Origin: an uncultured bacterium | Lineage (GTDB): Bacteria; Hydrogenedentota; Hydrogenedentia; Hydrogenedentales; JAEUWI01 | Length of the DNA: 64,000 nt | NCBI GenBank assembly: GCA_963977445.1 | Contig: CAXBPH010000003.1 | Span: 9,964-73,963 of the forward strand | Direction: 5' to 3' | Shown: positions 9,628 to 58,462 of the stretch, one piece after another | Layout of the letters: each line of letters opens with the position of its first letter | Numbering within the stretch: the stretch's first letter is position 1 | Notes under the pieces: generated by a model | Database searches by the model: none | Seen by the model: the letters and a program-made list of their open reading frames with translations, nothing else | Told to the model about the DNA's origin: nothing | Made by a program: the position numbers and the translations under genes

Positions 9628-10974
9628 GTGGATATCAAGCACAAAGCTACCCGGATCGAACTATTTAACTTTAGAACGGTCCAGATGCGAGCCTTCCATA
9701 TGTCGTGGTTTGCTTTCTTTCTTTGCTTTTTTGCCTGGTTCGGCATTGCTCCCATGATGGTTATCGTGCGAGACGAATTGTCCCTCACGAAGGCACAGAT
9801 CGGAAACACGATCATCGCGTCGGTCGCCATCACCATCATTGCGCGCCTGTTTATCGGGTGGCTCTGTGATCGCATCGGCCCCCGTTTAACCTACACGTGG
9901 TTACTCGTTTTCGCGTCGATTCCAGTTATGGGTATCGGGCTGGCCCAGAGTTACGAAACCTTTCTTCTCTTTCGTCTGGGAATTGGTGCCATCGGTGCCT
10001 CATTCGTTATTACCCAATACCACACATCCGTCATGTTTGCACCCAACTGTGTGGGAACGGCCAATGCCACCACGGCCGGCTGGGGCAATCTTGGCGGTGG
10101 TGTTACGCAGATGGTCATGCCCCTGCTTTTCAGCACCCTGCTGGTCATCGGCCTGAGTGAATTCTGGGCGTGGCGAACGGCCATGGTTATCGCTGGCGTA
10201 GTTTGCATGCTTACGGGTGTCGCCTATTATTTTGTTACGCAGGATACGCCGGACGGCAACTTCAAGGACCTCCGTGAACGGGGCCTGATGAGCTCGGCGA
10301 AGGACAACAAAGGTGCCTTTCTGGAGGCGGCGAAAGACTATCGCGTCTGGGCTTTGTTTTTTGTCTATGGCGCGTGTTTCGGCGTAGAACTCACCATCAA
10401 CAACGTCATCGCCCTCTACTACACGGATTACTTCGGCATGGGTATGAAGGCCGCCGGTGCGTTGGCTGCCTGCTTCGGTCTCATGAACTTATTTGCCCGC
10501 ACCCTGGGTGGCTTCTTTGGCGACAAACTTGGCATCAAGTATGGCCTGAAAGGACGGGTCCACTGGCTCACCGTCGCCCTCTTCATCGAAGGTCTTGCCC
10601 TCATGCTCTTCTCGCAGATGACCTTCCTCCCCCTGGCCCTGGGCACCATGATCATTTTCAGCCTCTTCGTGCAGATGTCGGAAGGCGCAACCTTCTCAGT
10701 CGTTCCCTTCATCAACAAACGGGCCCTTGGCGCGGTAGCCGGCATTGTCGGTGCCGGTGGAAACTTTGGTGCCGTATGCGCGGGCTTCCTCTTCAAGTCC
10801 GGTGCCATCACCTGGCCCCAGGCGCTACTTATTCTGGGCGTCATGGTAACCCTCTGTTCTGGGCTTACCGTGTTCGTCCGTTTCAGCGAAGCCGACGAAC
10901 GGGCTGCCGAAGCCGCAAATGAACTCGCTCGGGACATGGAAGACGGGGCTGTTGCGGAACCCGCATCCGCCTAG
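9628..10974 (+). CDS. narK: MFS nitrate/nitrite transporter (NarK/NRT2 family)
   Basis: About 12 TM segments; nitrate signatures 'GTANATTAGWGNLGGG' and 'GIVGAGGNFGA'; nitrate cluster context. Confidence 0.9.
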   Translation: MDIKHKATRIELFNFRTVQMRAFHMSWFAFFLCFFAWFGIAPMMVIVRDELSLTKAQIGNTIIASVAITIIARLFIGWLCDRIGPRLTYTWLLVFASIPVMGIGLAQSYETFLLFRLGIGAIGASFVITQYHTSVMFAPNCVGTANATTAGWGNLGGGVTQMVMPLLFSTLLVIGLSEFWAWRTAMVIAGVVCMLTGVAYYFVTQDTPDGNFKDLRERGLMSSAKDNKGAFLEAAKDYRVWALFFVYGACFGVELTINNVIALYYTDYFGMGMKAAGALAACFGLMNLFARTLGGFFGDKLGIKYGLKGRVHWLTVALFIEGLALMLFSQMTFLPLALGTMIIFSLFVQMSEGATFSVVPFINKRALGAVAGIVGAGGNFGAVCAGFLFKSGAITWPQALLILGVMVTLCSGLTVFVRFSEADERAAEAANELARDMEDGAVAEPASA

Positions 10975-42798: not shown

Positions 42799-43608
42799 TT
42801 AGACGGCGTCGGAAACGATTTTCTTTCCGGTAACCGGGCAAACTTTGGCTTCACCTTCGGAAGAAGCGGCTTTGGCCTTGTCACACTCAGACTTGGCTTT
42901 GTCGCAGGTCTTGGCTTCGCCTTCGGAAGAAGCAGCCTTGGCCTTGTCACACTCAGCTTTCGCTTTGTCACAAGTCTTGGCTTCACCTTCGGAAGAAGCA
43001 GCCTTGGCCTTGTCACAAGCGGACTTGGGGCATTCGCCTTCAGAGGAAGCAGCCTTCGCTTTGTCACAGGTCTTGGCTTCACCTTCAGAAGAAGCGGCTT
43101 TGGCCTTGTCACACTCAGACGTGGCTTTGTCACAGGTCTTGGCTTCGCCTTCGGAAGAAGCAGCCTTGGCCTTGTCACAGGTCTTGGCTTCACCTTCGGA
43201 AGAAGCGGCCTTCGCTTTATCGCACTGCTTCGCTTCACCTTCGGAGGAAGCAGCCTTGGCTACCTTCGTCTTGCAGCAGCTGGACGCTTCACCTTCAGAG
43301 GAAGCCGCCAACGCCTTATCGAAGGTCGCCTGCCGGTCGGCGATCAGCTTGGCTTTCTTTTCGCATGGCTGAAAGGCATCTTCATTCGCTGCGGAAACCG
43401 TCTGCATGCCGAAGAAGGAGGCAACACTGTTCTTAGCACTCGTGATGGCGCAGGAACCTGATGCTCCGTTGTTCGCAACAACGCCAGCAGTCGCCACGCC
43501 GGATACGACGACCATAGCAGCAACGAAGGATGCCCATTTGCCTTTGTTACGTTTCGGTGCTTGAGCCGTTTCTTCGGTCACAAGCTCTTCCTGATGTTCT
43601 TCGTTCAT
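42799..43608 (-). CDS. Membrane-anchored Cys/Ala/Lys/Glu-rich repeat protein
   Basis: One N-terminal hydrophobic helix, nine AASSEGE-containing units, 16 Cys; GGAG RBS before ATG 43608; own terminator. Confidence 0.75.
   Translation of the reverse strand: MNEEHQEELVTEETAQAPKRNKGKWASFVAAMVVVSGVATAGVVANNGASGSCAITSAKNSVASFFGMQTVSAANEDAFQPCEKKAKLIADRQATFDKALAASSEGEASSCCKTKVAKAASSEGEAKQCDKAKAASSEGEAKTCDKAKAASSEGEAKTCDKATSECDKAKAASSEGEAKTCDKAKAASSEGECPKSACDKAKAASSEGEAKTCDKAKAECDKAKAASSEGEAKTCDKAKSECDKAKAASSEGEAKVCPVTGKKIVSDAV
42846..43305 (-). repeat. Coding tandem repeat (45-bp units with 21-bp interspersed units)
   Basis: Recurrent ...ttggcttcaccttcggaagaagcagccttggccttgtcaca..., varying mainly at codon third positions. 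Confidence 0.85.
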
Positions 43609-44127
43609 TGAATATTGCTCCACAAGTGTTTAAATAAGTTACCCATGCAATCTACACGATAAACATAGATTCAAAATTGACCCGATTTCATGTCAAAACC
43701 TGGAATTATTCGTAGGGTTCAGCATAACAAAAACTCCGCCACTTCGCAATCCTGTCGAAGCGCGCATTTCCACGAACCCGAAAGAAATGAAAACAACCTA
43801 ACCATCTCAATTTAAAGGCGTTACATAAAGTGTGTCTTTAACCCACAATCGCTGGAACGGCTACGTCGTCAGCTCACCAAGTTTCAATGCAGTGCAATTT
43901 GTCCGAAAAATCGCTGAAAACAGGTTGGTTGGCCGAGAACATTCATGAAATAACTGCCCCATAGGCCATGCCCCCACGAAGCCCCGACTCAACCGGTATT
44001 TTGCCGACTTCCGACGATGTTGCCGATGTTTTTGAGGAAGTGGTGGCGGAGTCTTGTGCGGGTGTCTTGGTGGCTTGGGTCGTTGTCGGTCATCGTCGGC
44101 TGCCTTTTAAGATTGCCGAAAAGGGGC

Positions 44128-44331
44128 CTACTCTGCGGGATGCGCAGCCGTGATCGCGACGGGCTCCGAGGCCTCGCGGCTCTTGCGCATGAGTTCCTGG
44201 TCGATCATGCCAAGTTCGGCGGCCAAACCGGCTGCGGCTACGGACAGGCAGGTTTCTTCCACTTCCGCCGCGTGGCGCATCCATTCGGGAAAAGGAAACG
44301 CATCACTTGTGCTATTCATATCCATGGTCAT
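44128..44331 (-). CDS. Small hypothetical protein coupled to the GNAT gene (possibly truncated)
   Basis: ATGA overlap with the upstream GNAT stop; 67 aa. Confidence 0.45.
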   Translation of the reverse strand: MTMDMNSTSDAFPFPEWMRHAAEVEETCLSVAAAGLAAELGMIDQELMRKSREASEPVAITAAHPAE

Positions 44332-44894
44332 AGGTGCCTTTCCAGAATTCTCTCTGCATTGTCGCGCGAAAGTTCAAAGTACGTCAAGTTTTCGAAATCC
44401 ACGTCAGGGCCCAACGGTGTCATCCAACACGCCCCTCCGTAGAAGGGTACGGACTGCGGCAAGGCATGTAGGCCCACTCGACCTCCAAAGCCTTCGTCCC
44501 AGCTTTGCCGGACGGCGCGCTCGAACAGGTGGGGACCAATCAGGCCGTATTTTCGCGTTTGCCCGATACCTGGAATGGTCCAGTTCCAAGGGGCGACTTC
44601 CAGGAAGTCTATATATACCAGCGGCTTGCCATGATCTTCGCCGAGTTGGGAGAAATGTGTCCCAGACTTGGTCAGCATGGCACCCTGCCATTCGTCGTCA
44701 CAGACCACGGCGAATCCAGATGCAGGAACCAGGCGCAGGTGCTGCGCCTTGGCCCGCCAGTTCCAGTTGAGGCTCTGGGGTCGCTCGGAATAGGGAAGAC
44801 CCGCGCGGGCTATTTCGAGAAGGATGCGGGAGCGTTCTGGAGTCCACACCGATTCCAGTGTCAGCAGGTCTTCAGGCGCGACGAGGAGGGCCAA
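44328..44894 (-). CDS. GNAT-fold acetyltransferase-like protein, probably 5'-truncated
   Basis: 'LVYIDFLEVAPWN...GLIGPHLFERAVRQS...GRVGLHALPQSVPFY'; TTG start without RBS and an in-frame stop just upstream. Confidence 0.6.
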   Translation of the reverse strand: MALLVAPEDLLTLESVWTPERSRILLEIARAGLPYSERPQSLNWNWRAKAQHLRLVPASGFAVVCDDEWQGAMLTKSGTHFSQLGEDHGKPLVYIDFLEVAPWNWTIPGIGQTRKYGLIGPHLFERAVRQSWDEGFGGRVGLHALPQSVPFYGGACWMTPLGPDVDFENLTYFELSRDNAERILERHL

Positions 44895-47237: not shown

Positions 47238-48062
47238 CTAAAAATCGTCATGAATAGGCTCGGAAACTGTGCTCGTCACAGATTTGCAAAGTATTTTGTT
47301 AGAGCGCGTGATCAAGTCACGTGCATTGCGTACCCCCCAAGGAAATTGTTTTGAATCCTTAATTCTGGCTGGGCCTTTATCAATTTCGGCATGTGTGGAG
47401 ACACAGGTGAGCGAACCGACGGTTAGGCCAGCTCGCTCTGCCACAAACGCCTGAAGTTGCCCCAAACCGATTAGATTGCCAAGGCACCGAGATATGTACG
47501 TGTGGTTACGGTACATTGCTGTAAGCATCAAGCCCTTGTTTGGATGACATTTAAAGCTCAAAAAACTGAGGCATTGTCCCCCCCATCGACTACGCCCATC
47601 CTCCAAGGGATCGTAAACCGCTAGCTCATATGCCGACTTGAACTTCTGACCACCATTCTCGCGTTCTTGTAGCTTACCGATCAGCTGTTCTAGTGGATTG
47701 TATGTCTTGCCGAGCCTAGTCTGATGCCTGGTCATTCGCTCAAAGTACCTACCCCAGCGCCGGGTCTTCGTCAGTCTATCGAACGCTTCATGGTATTTCT
47801 CGTAGAACACCGGAGCCCCGTGCTGATTGTAGAGTGATTGGGGAAAAATCGTGTTACAGACCGTGGATATGGGGTAGCAATCGTACTTTCGTAGAAAATC
47901 GTCTACCTCTGAAATGATTTCATTGTCAGTTGAATCGAACGATACGGGATTTTCTACATCAACAATAACGTTGTATCCCTCATCATTGTGCTTCATGATC
48001 TCCATTGCAGCCGCTACCCACGCTCGCGCACAACTCTTCTGTGTCGGGATGGCGATGTACAT
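47238..48062 (-). CDS. Divergent thymidylate-synthase-fold protein
   Basis: 'GGQCLSFLSF' (catalytic Cys position), 'LMLTAMYRNH', 'LGNLIGL', 'GSLTCVSTHAEI' in TS motif order. Confidence 0.72.
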   Translation of the reverse strand: MYIAIPTQKSCARAWVAAAMEIMKHNDEGYNVIVDVENPVSFDSTDNEIISEVDDFLRKYDCYPISTVCNTIFPQSLYNQHGAPVFYEKYHEAFDRLTKTRRWGRYFERMTRHQTRLGKTYNPLEQLIGKLQERENGGQKFKSAYELAVYDPLEDGRSRWGGQCLSFLSFKCHPNKGLMLTAMYRNHTYISRCLGNLIGLGQLQAFVAERAGLTVGSLTCVSTHAEIDKGPARIKDSKQFPWGVRNARDLITRSNKILCKSVTSTVSEPIHDDF

Positions 48063-48074
48063 AGAAAGGTCTCC

Positions 48075-48722
48075 CTAATGCGTAATAAATGCGGAAAAGA
48101 TTCGCGACCCGAGATAACGTTTGCTCAACCAGGCGTAGCCATGAAGGCCCCAGGATTCACCCCAACTGTTTCTGATAGCGATATACTTTTCGCTGTTTTT
48201 CGTAGCTGTTGCGACGGCAACAACAGCGTGTCGTCGAACCGGGTCGATAGGCTCAGTTGAATCAACGATTCCAACGTTGTCCGGGGTATAGAACGCATCT
48301 GAGAACGACATCGCGAGGACGACGGGCTTGTCGGTTTGGATGCAGTCCCAAACGGCGTCAAATGTGGCGGTTAAGGCGCTAGTATGGCATTGGAAAAGTT
48401 GCCCTACGTTGTTGGGAGGCTTCCAGTGCGAAATTGGGCTTGGCAATGCCTTGAGGTAGGGCCAGGCGAGTTCGTTCGGTTGCCCGTCCCCAGTTAATGC
48501 AGAGCATACCCCCGGAATGGAAACACCCAAATCTGGAGAGCTTCTCTCCCACTTTATCGCGTAGTAGTATAGGTACTCACACGACAAGGGTTGCCAATTC
48601 CTCTCCAGTGCGGCGGAATGTGCGTCGCTCGTGGCGAACGCCAGGCATGTCGGGCGCGCTCCTTGATCGCGAGCGCTGCCAAAATATGGTCGTAGGTCGT
48701 GACGGATAATCATCGAACTCAT
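48075..48722 (-). CDS. Papain-like (C1) cysteine peptidase, no signal peptide
   Basis: 'RDQGARPTCLAFA' (Gln, Cys), 'RHAVVAV' (His), 'IRNSWGESWGLHGYAW' (Asn). Confidence 0.88.
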   Translation of the reverse strand: MSSMIIRHDLRPYFGSARDQGARPTCLAFATSDAHSAALERNWQPLSCEYLYYYAIKWERSSPDLGVSIPGVCSALTGDGQPNELAWPYLKALPSPISHWKPPNNVGQLFQCHTSALTATFDAVWDCIQTDKPVVLAMSFSDAFYTPDNVGIVDSTEPIDPVRRHAVVAVATATKNSEKYIAIRNSWGESWGLHGYAWLSKRYLGSRIFSAFITH

Positions 48723-49732
48723 GGGCGACTCAACATTGCTTGGCGTTGAGCTGGCAGGAGGCCGGTTTGTAGTGGTCCTGTCAAGTTTACATCAAATTCG
48801 AGCGACTGTAGAGATTCATCATCTGAGAGCCATGGTCGCTGTTCACGAAGATTCACGTGACCGAGTGCCGACTGCTCCGGTTCAGCCACGATCTTACGTT
48901 CGACAATACTACCGATTGCATTTTCAGTCGAGCGGGCCTCTCGGATGTCCTCAACTATTTTGAGGCCGACTTTGGAGAGACTGTCAAACGACCACATGTA
49001 CCCTGATGAAGCGTGTTCGATCAGCTCGAGAATCACGATGTCGTGCGCGCTTCCTTCAATTAGGAGCCTTTGATCGCCCATGCCAAGCACCCATATATCC
49101 GCATACCATGATTCTGGGGTGTGCTGTTTGGTGAGCTGCTGCTTGATAGATTTTGGTTGGGTTTTGAGCAGGGAGTCTCGTACTGATTTCGAAATCGCAT
49201 TGTGCTTGAGGAGCGCATGACAAGTCGCCGCATAGCTTGACCCCATCCGTAAGGCCAATTGGTAGACTATTTTCGGAGACGTTAGGTCTGAGCTCGCCCA
49301 CCCTTGTTGACCCATGTGGTGCGTGATTAGCCATTTCGGTGTAAGCAGTTCGGAGGCAAACGCATTTGCCTGCAGTTCTATGAGATCAAGAGCTGCCCCG
49401 CTCTCAAACGGAGTTCGGTTTAGCCTGGATTCGTCATCTAGACTAGACGAGTGCCCCATGACCGCGTGACCCAATTCGTGTGCTGCCGTGAAGCGCTGTA
49501 CGGAAAGGGGGCGTTGTGTGGTCAACAGAACTCCAGATCCATTTTCTTCCAAATAGCATCCGAGCAGCCCCTTCATCGGTTGGAACATGACAGGTATGTC
49601 GAGAGCTGCGAGAAGTCCAAACACATCGATGCGTCCCACCCCACTCTTTACCTTTTTTTTGACACCATGGCTAGCATGTAATCGGTTAGCAGCAAGAGCC
49701 GCCTCGAGTATAGCCTTACGAACGTCTGGCAT
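48719..49732 (-). CDS. ImmA/IrrE-family Zn metallopeptidase with a C-terminal chagasin (I42)-like domain
   Basis: 'QRFTAAHELGH', 'ELQANAFASELL'; C-terminal 'LELIEHASSGYMW...IGS...LREQRPW'. Confidence 0.82.
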   Translation of the reverse strand: MPDVRKAILEAALAANRLHASHGVKKKVKSGVGRIDVFGLLAALDIPVMFQPMKGLLGCYLEENGSGVLLTTQRPLSVQRFTAAHELGHAVMGHSSSLDDESRLNRTPFESGAALDLIELQANAFASELLTPKWLITHHMGQQGWASSDLTSPKIVYQLALRMGSSYAATCHALLKHNAISKSVRDSLLKTQPKSIKQQLTKQHTPESWYADIWVLGMGDQRLLIEGSAHDIVILELIEHASSGYMWSFDSLSKVGLKIVEDIREARSTENAIGSIVERKIVAEPEQSALGHVNLREQRPWLSDDESLQSLEFDVNLTGPLQTGLLPAQRQAMLSRP

Positions 49733-49735
49733 AGG

Positions 49736-50116
49736 TCAGCCCCCTTTTTGCGCTTTCCTCGATTTCAAGAATTCTGCGAATCTGGCGAGTTCGCTGCGAT
49801 CTTCCGGGGCCAATTCAGATACCTGCCGTGCCAGATGAGCGACTTCCTTGTCAACTGGATGCGTGTCAGCGGTTTCACCGGTAAAAAAGTTCAGAGACCT
49901 CCCGTAGAGTTCGGCTAATTTCTTGAGTTCAAACACTTCAACTTTCCTCAGCCCTGCTTCCATCAAAGATAGCGCGGAACGAGAAGTACCTACTTTCGTG
50001 GCTATTTCGTTCTGGGAGAATCCAACATACTCTCGGGCTTCACGTAGCCGGTCACCAAGTACCTTTCTATCGCTATCACCTTCAACTTTTTTATTGTTGG
50101 GAGCTCTACTACTCAT
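49736..50116 (-). CDS. XRE-family HTH transcriptional regulator
   Basis: 'LGDRLREAREYVGFSQNEIATKVGTSRSALSLMEAGLRKV'; ATGA overlap with the upstream gene. Confidence 0.9.
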   Translation of the reverse strand: MSSRAPNNKKVEGDSDRKVLGDRLREAREYVGFSQNEIATKVGTSRSALSLMEAGLRKVEVFELKKLAELYGRSLNFFTGETADTHPVDKEVAHLARQVSELAPEDRSELARFAEFLKSRKAQKGG

Positions 50117-50433
50117 TTGCTTCCCTTTCTTTTTTCCTCTTCTTGGCACAATTTATCTATACGCAGCATCATATCGTCAATTGCTTCATCAACACTTTGA
50201 TAGCCGCCTTTTCGTATAGTCTTGTCTGGAGGTAGTCGAAAACCAACGATTGGCTCGATGGCTAACAAAGTGCTTACGACGGCAAAGGAGTCCAAAAGTG
50301 GCTCCCAAACCTTGCGCAACAGAGCCCCCTCATCCACAATCTCGTCAAGCTTGTCAGTCAAAACTGCCCGAATTTCGCAAGAAGTCAAATGAACATCTTC
50401 GTCGATTTGAAACGCTGTGGATGTGTTTGCCAT
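50113..50433 (-). CDS. Acyl-carrier-protein-like small acidic protein
   Basis: 106 aa; 'LLDSFAVVSTLLAIEPIVGFRLP...SVDEAIDDM' resembles the ACP DS(Ppant)-helix II-loop-helix IV pattern; AGGAG RBS; PPTase in the same operon. Confidence 0.6.
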   Translation of the reverse strand: MANTSTAFQIDEDVHLTSCEIRAVLTDKLDEIVDEGALLRKVWEPLLDSFAVVSTLLAIEPIVGFRLPPDKTIRKGGYQSVDEAIDDMMLRIDKLCQEEEKRKGSK

Positions 50434-50458: not shown

Positions 50459-50487
50459 AGGATACCAAAATTCAGTTGGAAAATCAA
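50459..50487 (-). promoter_or_regulatory. Candidate sigma-70 promoter of the island operon
   Basis: Minus strand TTGATT-17bp-TATCCT with TG extension, 25 bp before the ACP-like start. Confidence 0.55.
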
Positions 50488-50500
50488 ACACAAAATATCA

Positions 50501-50523
50501 ATATGTTAGATTTTCTAACATAT
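50501..50523. promoter_or_regulatory. Perfect palindrome, candidate XRE operator
   Basis: ATATGTTAGA-TTT-TCTAACATAT. Confidence 0.6.
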
Positions 50524-50525
50524 GG

Positions 50526-50607
50526 TATAGCCCAGGGTTTTGCTTGTTCGCGCTTGGGGCGTGAACTTGCTGCGCCCTGGGCTATAGTGTGTCACCCCGT
50601 TGGGGCT
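50526..50607. repeat. REP-like palindromic element (AGCCCAGGG...CCCTGGGCT family)
   Basis: TATAGCCCAGGG (50526-37) / CCCTGGGCTATA (50575-86) plus CCCCGTTGGGG hairpin; same motif family as 63691-64000. Confidence 0.75.
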
Positions 50608-50850
50608 ATTCAGATCGCCCTGTACGGATTCGCCGAAGAATGACACTTCGCCCGAAGTGGGCGCCAGCAACCCCATGAGCACCTTGATGGTCGTGCTCTT
50701 ACCCGCGCCATTGGGCCCGAGAAGGCCGAAGGCGGCCCCACGCTTTATTTGGAGATTGAGGCCGTGGACACCATCTCCGTGTTCGTAGGTTTTTACGAGT
50801 TCTGAGATTTCGACCACCGACTCGGTCTTCACCGGGGCCTGTTTATCCAT
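50608..50850 (-). pseudogene. 5' fragment of an ABC transporter ATP-binding gene
   Basis: 'FGLLGPNGAGKSTTIKVLMGLLAPTSGEV' Walker A; frame then runs into the REP with no Q-loop, signature or Walker B. Confidence 0.8.
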
Positions 50851-51001
50851 AACCTGCACGAAAACAACTCCCCTTGTTCTTCGCTGCAGAACCTGCGTGC
50901 AGCGGGAAAACTGCCAACGAAATAGCCCGATACGCTATAGTACAAGACATTAATCTATCTGACAATCCCCAAAGATTAACCGGAAAGCCCAATCAAAATT
51001 C

Positions 51002-57271: not shown

Positions 57272-58462
57272 CTACCGAAGGCGAAACTCACCAATCAATC
57301 CAGGCCGTCGCGCAAGCAAACTCTCTAAGTGACTATCTGCCCACATTTCGATGCGAAGTGCCGAATCTGATTGGTTGTGGTTCTCGATTATTTGAATAGC
57401 ATCTGTGCTGAATCTGCCGGACGTCGCAATAATGTGAACATCAACTCGCGGCGGCTCCCAGAGTTTCATTTGCTCTCTCAAAGTCGCAATTTCCTTAGCA
57501 CCGACGCTTTTCGACAGCCAATGCTTGCATTGAATAATCACTCGCAGGCGAAACGTTCCGCCTAGTTTGTCGAGAAACACTCTTTGGCACGAAAGATCCC
57601 GTCCTCTGTCTGACGCGTTCGTCTTAGTAAGCCACTCCGCATTTTCGTAACCTTCGGTTTGCGATATCAGATTGAAAACCAATCTCTCGAAATCATCCTC
57701 ATCGATGGCTTCCCAGTTTAGCTTGGTTGCGATTTCTCCGACGGGCCTAGCCTTAACTAACTCACCCAAATCGTCGACGGCCACCGGTAATGGGTCGGAA
57801 CTACCGTATAAAATCTCCGTCATCCCCGCGTCGACAGCTGGCCAATCGTGCTTTATTATGTCTCGAAGATCGCCAATCATACCGTAATGAAGGTGCCTTT
57901 TCAGATCACCCCATCTCGGAGGACGCTTGGCACTACTTCCCAAGATAGTATCGATTCTGGAAACACTGGAGACCAATACTTCCCAGTCGTCACCGTCGAC
58001 AGAACCGTTAGCCTCGAGTTTGCTCGGATAGTCTGTGCGAAGACGCGCCAGCGCTAAATTGGCGATACGTATCTCTTCAAGTAATGCGTGACGAAATACC
58101 GTTCTCCGTGACCTATTCAACCGATAACGGTACTCTTTGAGGTCTTTCTCTGGCGAGAATATGTGCTCATCTATTATTACGGCACTCTCAAAGTCGCCAA
58201 TCTCCATGGCGTCAAATCTGAATTGTCCGATTTCATTTAGCTCTAAGAGTGAATCTGGCATTGTCCATCCATCAATCTTAGGAAGAGCTTCACGTACTTG
58301 ACGATAATCTCGGCAGCAATCATCGTACACTCCGTCGGTCATGTCCCCGAACGAAACACTTTCAGGAATCATCGATTTGATCTTTTCCCACAAAGCTTCT
58401 AACTTCACAAGATTGGCTTCGGTTGCTTCAAATTGCTTCAATGCATCGTTCAATGAGCTCAT
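57272..58462 (-). CDS. Mrr-like (PD-(D/E)xK) restriction endonuclease domain protein with a long helical N-terminus
   Basis: 'DFERLVFNL', 'DRGRDL', 'IIQCKHW', 'ATSGRFS'; more AT-rich than flanks. Confidence 0.8.
   Translation of the reverse strand: MSSLNDALKQFEATEANLVKLEALWEKIKSMIPESVSFGDMTDGVYDDCCRDYRQVREALPKIDGWTMPDSLLELNEIGQFRFDAMEIGDFESAVIIDEHIFSPEKDLKEYRYRLNRSRRTVFRHALLEEIRIANLALARLRTDYPSKLEANGSVDGDDWEVLVSSVSRIDTILGSSAKRPPRWGDLKRHLHYGMIGDLRDIIKHDWPAVDAGMTEILYGSSDPLPVAVDDLGELVKARPVGEIATKLNWEAIDEDDFERLVFNLISQTEGYENAEWLTKTNASDRGRDLSCQRVFLDKLGGTFRLRVIIQCKHWLSKSVGAKEIATLREQMKLWEPPRVDVHIIATSGRFSTDAIQIIENHNQSDSALRIEMWADSHLESLLARRPGLIGEFRLR

Follow-up and report, generated by a model that had tools for sequence, protein, structure and literature searches.

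Chagasin-type inhibitors (family I42) block papain-like (family C1) cysteine peptidases by means of three loops, and bacterial proteins of this family have been described as exported or surface-bound and aimed at host proteases (10.64898/2026.06.02.729523). In the zinc peptidases IrrE and CapP, the C-terminal place is taken by a GAF domain (PMC13228613; 10.1101/2022.04.27.489752), and an arginine seven residues before the first His, R90 in CapP and R85 in IrrE, binds single-stranded DNA (ssDNA; PMC13228613). Here we describe a protein, IrrE-I42, in which an ImmA/IrrE (M78) peptidase carries a chagasin-type domain, and whose gene directly precedes that of a papain-like peptidase, named C1. Both genes lie in a stretch of 64,000 nucleotides (the window; positions 9,964 to 73,963 of contig CAXBPH010000003.1, assembly GCA_963977445.1) from an uncultured bacterium of the Hydrogenedentales. 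Each half of IrrE-I42 belongs to a known kind, and automatic annotation picks up the architecture; the pair is real and well supported, and its function is predicted.

In the 337-residue open reading frame (ORF), HELGH corresponds to residues 85-89, LELIEHASSGYMW to 235-247, AIGS to 272-275, and QRPW to 298-301. An earlier note on this DNA had proposed a chagasin-like domain after the HELGH peptidase domain. Both domains are present, and an HTH-like (helix-turn-helix-like) linker of residues about 133-200 separates them. Pfam assigned the protein to Peptidase_M78 (E 9e-11), and its best PADLOC match is capP. The catalytic residues H85, E86, H89 and H94 are invariant in 114 divergent family members, and E119 is found in 113 of them. 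With an AlphaFold2 model of IrrE-I42 (predicted local distance difference test score, pLDDT, 88.7; predicted template modelling score 0.88), Foldseek retrieved EhICP2 as the top match (E 1.8e-8, template modelling score 0.84 over the target), followed by IrrE, chagasin and CapP. In a wide structural search, peptidase and linker matched CapP (7T5T; Z 14.8 over residues 9-192), and the C-terminal domain (residues 208-318) matched EhICP2 (3M86; Z 14.2, root-mean-square deviation (rmsd) 2.5, 110 residues aligned) and chagasin (2H7W; Z 11.7), while ordinary, non-chagasin immunoglobulin-like (Ig-like) domains reached Z values of at most 7.2. Searched against the sequences of the PDB, a profile of the 114 divergent members (mean column identity 31%) matched EhICP2 (E 6.8e-13), P. 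aeruginosa ICP (E 1.4e-10) and chagasin (E 7.5e-7), and the alignments to the first two bring the three inhibitory loops into register. Furthermore, the Pfam family Inhibitor_I42 (PF09394) is matched at E<=0.01 by 113 of 121 close homologues. The C-terminal domain of IrrE-I42 is a chagasin-type (I42) sandwich; the Ig-like fold that the earlier note had singled out for checking was recovered by profile, by Foldseek and by the structural search. A chance motif match as the origin of the I42 signal is excluded by the family-wide Pfam, profile and fold results.

The conservation of the inhibitory loops was counted in 119 full-length divergent representatives, taken from the best 150 of 430 clusters (50% identity, E<=1e-30). 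In loop 1, G244 is kept in 116 and W247 in 105 representatives; in loop 2, G274 is kept in 112; in loop 3, the counts are 99 for R299, 96 for P300 and 109 for W301. The conserved fractions in the 114 members are 0.99 (G244), 0.94 (G274), 0.92 (W301), 0.89 (W247), 0.84 (R299) and 0.81 (P300) at a median position conservation of 0.29, which places loop residues among the most conserved ones of the domain. Of the NPTTGYxW, GxGG and RPW loops that the earlier note named for chagasins, the GY-W portion, the Gly and the RPW are conserved, whereas the window protein contains HASSGY instead of the canonical NPTTGY, the Asn-Pro-Thr-Thr part having diverged, and GS instead of GG in loop 2. Close homologues do contain GG at this place (G275 in 98% of 121).

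The 215-residue ORF behind IrrE-I42 was assigned to Peptidase_C1 (E 1.7e-11). Its catalytic residues Q20, C26, H165 and N185 are invariant across 120 aligned homologues, and its profile matches cathepsin K, ficin and mite proteases (best E 2.7e-14). The two ORFs, both on the minus strand, overlap by ATGA; the overlapping, signal-less C1 gene with a Q/C/H/N set that had been described is thus borne out. In 43 of 44 non-redundant loci the start codon of C1 lies -8 to +7 nucleotides from the IrrE stop, and in all 44 the codon of the catalytic Cys follows 20-43 codons past that stop. There is therefore no space for a signal peptide or a propeptide, and C1 looks, from its sequence, like an intact papain that is uncapped. 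The inhibitor-bearing gene comes first and its product is translated first. Gene order and overlap are as in type II toxin-antitoxin pairs with an upstream coupled partner, and neutralisation by protein-protein contact is predicted.

C1 was modelled together with residues 190-337 of IrrE-I42 in three runs, and three controls were included. The complex scored 0.91 and the best control 0.00. In the calibration of the tool, which is roughly applicable with own alignments, 116 of 157 solved complexes and 2 of 215 mismatched pairs attained that mark. The runs share 100% of their contacts, with a partner pLDDT of at least 75. In the modelled interface, residues 240-246, 264-269, 271-277 and 299-302 of IrrE-I42 lie on Q20, C26, H165, W187 and W191 of C1. 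Loop 1 (240-246) contacts C26, Q20, H165 and W187, and the RPW loop contacts W187, W191 and Y145. The structure prediction that the earlier note had suggested thus places the loops in the active site of C1; it shows a likeness to the chagasin-papain mode and is not a proof of binding.

Loops and C1 were also followed through related loci. Among the best 80 of 517 confirmed genome loci, ranked by IrrE similarity, a C1 gene stands behind the IrrE gene in 80, and in a reciprocal plasmid search all 16 C1 records adjoin an IrrE match. A pooled set of 250 loci with an IrrE-like gene was reduced to 231 by removing 19 truncated ones. I42 and an adjacent C1 occur in 115 of these; 113, mostly unrelated ImmA-type genes, have neither. 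Two loci contain I42 but no called C1 neighbour: in L039 the gene is split and C1 follows its second half, and in L128 it is frameshifted at a contig end. One further locus, L123, combines C1 with an expanded domain that retains the first loop. The I42 profile used for this scoring was built from IrrE-I42 members and is circular; independent support comes from Pfam, PDB sequences and fold. When the 117 loci with a thymidylate-synthase-like (TS-like) gene are considered, 107 have loops and C1, nine have neither, and one (L123) has C1 with the expanded domain. After thinning to less than 70% identity, 44 C1-bearing (type I) and seven C1-less operon loci remained, and I42 is found in 43 of the former and in none of the latter.

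The C1-less operon form was found on plasmids of Streptomyces and cyanobacteria, in metagenomic data and in a single genome from the window's order; five of the nine loci lie in annotated plasmids with a carrier-sized gene, a kinase and MazG-type genes. Its IrrE proteins have about 285-310 residues and retain the domain start (DVW...GD) and the GL tail, with all three loops missing. The loops are likewise missing from 120 database homologues of one such IrrE, a set of sequences taken without gene context. A model of the C1-less IrrE (pLDDT 90.9) contains a sandwich of smaller size, matched best by EhICP2 (Z 6.5 over 76 aligned residues, rmsd 2.8) and next by P. aeruginosa ICP (Z 5.9). These Z values are in the range that the tool calls common, the Foldseek E value is 0.04, and the profile alignment ends at the domain start; a chagasin ancestry of this domain is suggestive only. 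As operon versions without C1 exist, C1 is an accessory layer of the operon.

Three long IrrE forms of 430-470 residues (L083, 7917-9209; L123, 7956-9368; L126, 318-1650) keep a first loop ENRTTG, contain long insertions and have YxxA(F/Y)DP in the place of RPW. C1 follows the long IrrE in L083 and L123; in L083, a Mycobacterium plasmid, it is broken by an IS630 element.

Fold, loop conservation, complex model, translational coupling and co-occurrence of loops with C1 together support cognate inhibition well. The I42 domain very probably caps and inhibits its cognate C1, and the claim that it blocks the adjacent peptidase has gained good support.

The pair is part of a larger operon with carrier, XRE, TS-like and kinase/MazG genes, which the earlier note had missed. 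The order is operator, acyl-carrier-like protein, XRE, IrrE-I42, C1, TS-like protein, 5-hydroxymethyldeoxyuridine (5-hmdU) kinase/MazG/MazG_C fusion, and AcpS. The coordinates are listed in Table 1.

Table 1. Features of the IrrE-I42/C1 operon in window coordinates.
Feature	Position	Strand	Basis or remark
Palindromic operator candidate, TGTYNGAWWWTCNRACA type, upstream of first operon gene	50504..50520	.	predicted XRE site
Second, imperfect operator copy (candidate)	50474..50490	.	matrix score 16.2
Acyl-carrier-like protein, 106 residues, LDS motif	50113..50433	-	NCBIfam acyl carrier protein E 0.013
XRE-family repressor (CapH/ImmR/DdrO-like)	49736..50149	-	Pfam HTH_31 E 6.7e-12; PADLOC capH E 3.5e-15
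IrrE-I42: ImmA/IrrE (M78) zinc peptidase, HTH-like linker, chagasin (I42) domain, short tail	48719..49732	-	337 residues
Chagasin/I42 domain, residues 208-318	48779..49111	-	Pfam, profile and structure matches
Inhibitory loop 1, residues 239-247, EHASSGYMW (chagasin NPTTGY-W loop)	48992..49018	-	conservation, model contacts
Inhibitory loop 2, Gly loop, residues 272-277	48902..48919	-	conservation, model interface
Inhibitory loop 3, RPW, residues 299-301	48830..48838	-	conservation, model contacts
C1, papain-family (C1A-like) cysteine peptidase, 215 residues	48075..48722	-	Pfam, invariant catalytic residues
Thymidylate-synthase-like protein, 274 residues, conserved Cys	47238..48062	-	TIGR03283 E 1.7e-10, under cut-off
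5-hmdU DNA kinase helical domain + MazG + MazG_C, 627 residues	45306..47189	-	PF18723, PF03819, PF18722
AcpS-type phosphopantetheinyl transferase, 127 residues	44914..45297	-	PF01648 E 2.9e-16

The Pfam scores of the 627-residue fusion are E 2.5e-114 for PF18723, 5.4e-6 for PF03819 and 8.3e-70 for PF18722. The conserved Cys of the TS-like protein is invariant in 19 aligned relatives, and the likely start of XRE is the ATG at 50116, which overlaps the carrier stop. XRE is present in all 51 non-redundant operon loci (44 type I and seven C1-less). In the 44 type I loci, which were selected for the TS-like gene and some of whose contigs end early, XRE was counted 44 times, the carrier 38, MazG 34, the kinase domain 19 and AcpS 11 times. 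The carrier homologues of type I loci mostly contain a DS motif, and RefSeq names type II relatives 'acyl carrier protein'. Type I carriers also have a GGY motif after the DS serine motif that is absent from the two C1-less carriers in the alignment and might be contacted by C1 or the TS-like enzyme. Relatives add uracil-DNA-glycosylase-like, dCTP deaminase or dTMP kinase genes. In L082, L084 and many alphaproteobacterial loci, a convergent pair of uracil-DNA-glycosylase-like and MazG genes replaces the co-oriented kinase/MazG gene, and L084 adjoins a Shedu nuclease gene. Fusions of XRE with IrrE-I42 exist (proteins P0247, P0292, P0294, P0329, P0348). In P0348 the IrrE part is broken off after the first loop and joined to TS-like and MazG parts, and neither an RPW loop nor C1 sequence is present; a deletion or an artefact of assembly may account for this form.

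The palindrome TGT-N11-ACA was chosen as the commonest among many gapped words. Of 43 non-redundant type I upstream regions, 30 contain it, compared to a mean of 2.6 and a maximum of 8 in 500 resamplings, and the inner positions (GA...TC), which had not been used for its discovery, are also conserved. A matrix that included the window's own sites scored at least 11 bits at just two places in the 64 kb, and both precede the carrier gene. XRE is predicted to bind the palindrome at this place. In C1-less loci the operator was found in three of seven (null mean 0.68, maximum 4), which is not significant, and a scan for sigma-70 promoters and terminators gave no excess over shuffles.

As the best explanation of the whole, we consider it somewhat probable that IrrE-I42 acts as a switch with two functions within a mobile operon that represses itself. 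An XRE dimer on the palindrome upstream of the carrier gene would keep the operon repressed, and the zinc peptidase domain would cut XRE upon stress or an invader signal. This first step, the relief of XRE repression by IrrE cleavage, is likely; it is deduced from IrrE/DdrO, CapP/CapH and ImmA/ImmR. The chagasin domain would act as a cytoplasmic cognate inhibitor and substitute for the propeptide missing from C1, which would thus be made already capped. Firing of the switch, or the loss or displacement of IrrE-I42, would release C1, which could then back up the base-modifying enzymes by cutting proteins of the host, the invader or the operon. There is about an even chance that C1 serves as such a latent, accessory effector, with defence against phages or other mobile DNA as its most likely role; the analysis turned up no release mechanism and no substrate for C1. 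A cascade in which C1 is held until triggered, a toxicity of C1 and an ssDNA dependence of IrrE-I42, all raised in the earlier note, are conjectural.

Several observations weigh against this explanation. The window protein itself matches PF09394 with an E value of 5.8e-5 and 23.7 bits, below the gathering cut-off of 27.2 bits, and the canonical Asn-Pro of loop 1 is mostly replaced (His in 47 and Asn in 18 of the 119 representatives). The complex model covers residues 190-337 only, and it may recall known structures, because chagasin-papain complexes have already been solved (2OUL, 2NQD, 3E1Z; PMC7863939). The loci were collected mostly by IrrE similarity and include many near-copies. In the peptidase-linker tree the C1-less state needs two changes and none of 200 bootstrap trees gives one, yet the starred branches force only one, and an approximately unbiased (AU) test did not reject a single clade (p 0.38). 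The loss of loops and C1 was therefore perhaps one event, and several independent co-losses are not claimed. PADLOC had no matching model for C1, for the TS-like protein or for the kinase/MazG protein of the window. Moreover, inhibitor and protease are co-transcribed, and chagasin-type binding is very tight; chagasins bind their targets at picomolar to nanomolar concentrations (PMC7863939). Induction alone should therefore not free C1, and release would need degradation, a conformational change or a competitor. Finally, the GAF domain, which forms the ssDNA groove in IrrE and CapP, is replaced by the chagasin domain, and the position equivalent to R90 of CapP and R85 of IrrE is V, I or L in 98 of 114 members. 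The ssDNA groove is therefore not conserved as such.

A more far-reaching version is offered tentatively: a prokaryotic defence system whose sensor, besides cleaving the repressor, would itself serve as antitoxin to an executioner of the papain type, with the chagasin loops as a tripwire. C1 would be freed once the inhibitor is lost, changes its conformation or is displaced by a competitor such as a phage papain-like protease, and the same event would derepress the carrier-protein-dependent pyrimidine/DNA-modifying arm.

It is less likely that the signal runs in the opposite direction, with C1 as a regulatory or sensing subunit of the metallopeptidase and I42-C1 acting as a guard or decoy in the place of GAF. 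An invader protein, either a phage papain-like competitor or one that engages C1, would then switch on the cleavage of XRE. I42 replaces GAF exactly, and the hydrophobic residue at the CapP R90 position makes a different input plausible. In addition, viral contigs often contain papain-like relatives (403 confirmed stretches; the 80 best are 25-30% identical, and none of these has an IrrE or I42 gene nearby), and the Atlas clusters that come next-nearest to C1 include virus-rich ones. However, C1-less operons retain IrrE, XRE and the enzymes and are also without that arginine, so that the switch works without C1, and the invariant catalytic set of C1 implies that proteolysis matters.

Slightly less likely still is that C1 is a pathway enzyme and not a toxin, with I42 as a safety catch that sets the timing. 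C1 could be a papain-fold hydrolase or transacylase that clears or turns over a carrier-borne or protein-DNA adduct from the TS-like enzyme; alternatively, it could mature or degrade operon proteins and thereby reset the response. Papain folds also serve as deconjugases and acyltransferases. The constant place of C1 between regulator and TS-like gene, the carrier protein and sometimes an own AcpS of the operon, and the missing export signal of C1 are consistent with such a role. Nine operon loci, however, contain XRE, IrrE and the TS-like gene and do without C1, which argues that the core chemistry does not need it, and the C1 profile resembles general endopeptidases. That I42 is a structural or foreign-protease-binding module and the gene order an inherited linkage is improbable: the sub-threshold Pfam score, the non-canonical first loop, a complex model that may echo solved structures and the host-protease targets of Pseudomonas chagasin-like proteins (10.64898/2026.06.02.729523) would agree with it, but the loops are conserved only with C1 and are absent from seven of seven non-redundant C1-less operons and from the 120 homologues of the C1-less form, and the fusion protein has no export signal and its translational coupling is kept.

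The operon is patchy and mobile. The G+C content at 46-48 kb of the window is 46.6%, compared to mostly 55-60% elsewhere; the operon is absent in eight other genomes of the genus, where the flanking genes sit closer together, and a TS-like gene occurs in three of 135 genomes of the phylum. Of 18 plasmid records, 12 were typed as conjugative. Relatives are spread over Planctomycetota, Pseudomonadota, Acidobacteriota, Armatimonadota, Gemmatimonadota and Actinomycetota and include one haloarchaeal plasmid. This plasmid, from Haloarcula marina (L081), carries an operon copy with loops and C1 intact; its additional genes are a dTMP kinase, a kinase-domain gene, a phosphopantetheinyl transferase and a neighbouring restriction endonuclease. 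No att-like direct repeats were found at the island ends. A truncated ABC-transporter ATPase fragment (50515-50859, minus strand) ends at the operator region, and a 28-nucleotide imperfect inverted repeat (50526-50586) lies at its junction, which is likely the right edge of the island. A phage origin of the IrrE-I42 gene was rejected, the best 80 viral-contig matches being short peptidase-domain matches. Among them, only L181 has a TS-like neighbour, and it is of the C1-less form.

Other genes in the surroundings were also noted. After AcpS, the region 44128-44894 (minus strand) contains a 188-residue ORF, GNAT-like by eye, and a 67-residue partner. The former had no match in Pfam, NCBIfam or PADLOC and none in 80 genome loci; DNA matches to the region exist in three other genomes of the genus without the operon. 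The two ORFs are probably a separate small toxin-antitoxin-like module. Cys-containing repeats of the CDKAKAASSEGEAK type, about ten in number, and a hydrophobic segment at the N-terminus characterise a 274-residue protein (42799-43623, minus strand) that is conserved in the genus. An Mrr-like restriction endonuclease is encoded at a distance of about 7 kb from the operon (57272-58462, minus strand; PF04471 E 2e-12, PADLOC PDC-M58A E 4.5e-11).

A cytoplasmic I42 domain on a DNA-damage-type switch protease with a papain behind it offers a testable endogenous role for bacterial I42, and I42 capping would be a way of keeping a propeptide-less papain latent. The operon versions with and without the module of C1 and loops are a natural pair for dissecting a widespread, mobile system. 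This system joins a carrier protein to TS-like and 5-hydroxymethyluracil (5-hmU) kinase/MazG enzymes, for which pyrimidine or DNA-base chemistry is predicted. If the proposed function is true, a chagasin-papain pair would serve as an intracellular immune switch in bacteria and archaea. RefSeq named two of 18 plasmid matches automatically as 'protease inhibitor I42 family protein', and both families appear in Atlas clusters. The neighbourhoods of the kinase and MazG_C domains were reportedly defined by Iyer et al. in 2013 and may show this operon. A literature search for chagasin and IrrE as whole words gave no paper within its scope, which lay outside subscription journals and bioRxiv supplements, and no description of an IrrE-I42 fusion or of the pair was found in literature listings and abstract starts. 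In PMC8989533 the term 'peptidase' gave no match, and the passages of the ParA preprint concern other systems. Domains related to the enzymes of the operon were tied to phage defence only recently (PMC13092281).

The three-component COG2856-Xre modules (Makarova 2009, PMC2701414) likewise place Xre and a zinc protease beside a putative third effector. The third components named there are RelE/PIN nucleases, and the words 'papain', 'chagasin' and 'thymidylate' occur zero times (PMC2701414). DS-4 (NTTI) of DefensePredictor, which contains thymidylate synthase and 5-hmU kinase domains and was validated as anti-phage, shares TS-type and base-hypermodification/kinase genes as a theme, compared by annotation (PMC13092281). 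Its set comprises a thymidylate synthase, an adenylate kinase, a base hypermodification protein, a TIR protein and a hypothetical protein and, unlike the window operon, no annotated XRE, IrrE, C1 or carrier protein (PMC13092281).

In the staphopain-staphostatin and SpeB-Spi pairs, a papain-clan protease stands beside a cognate cytoplasmic inhibitor, as here. Protease and inhibitor are co-transcribed in these pairs. Here the protease is secreted as a zymogen that carries a propeptide, and its inhibitor, a small protein in its own right, has a different fold. In contrast, the protease of the window has neither signal peptide nor propeptide, and the presumed inhibitor is a domain of a regulator that is encoded first. 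Staphostatin complexes are on record (PMC7863939).

IrrE(PprI)/DdrO, CapP/CapH and ImmA/ImmR share with this locus the HExxH...E peptidase with an HTH-like linker, the adjacent XRE and an operator upstream. In IrrE-I42, however, GAF is exchanged for chagasin, the R90/R85 equivalent is hydrophobic, a conserved cysteine switch is missing (any Cys in loop 90-118: 15 of 114), and the regulators lie inside the operon, which is without a cyclic-oligonucleotide-based anti-phage signalling system (CBASS). The chagasin/ICP proteins of MEROPS I42 (T. cruzi chagasin, EhICP2, P. aeruginosa ICP, P. putida Cpi1) have the same sandwich and three-loop face, which in IrrE-I42 is modelled over a papain active site, and chagasin has an endogenous C1 target in cruzipain (PMC7863939), as is presumed for IrrE-I42. 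In contrast to these stand-alone or lipoprotein inhibitors, the domain described here is cytoplasmic and fused to an M78 metallopeptidase, its first loop is HxSxGY instead of NPTTGY, and its gene lies directly upstream of, and is coupled to, that of its presumed target.

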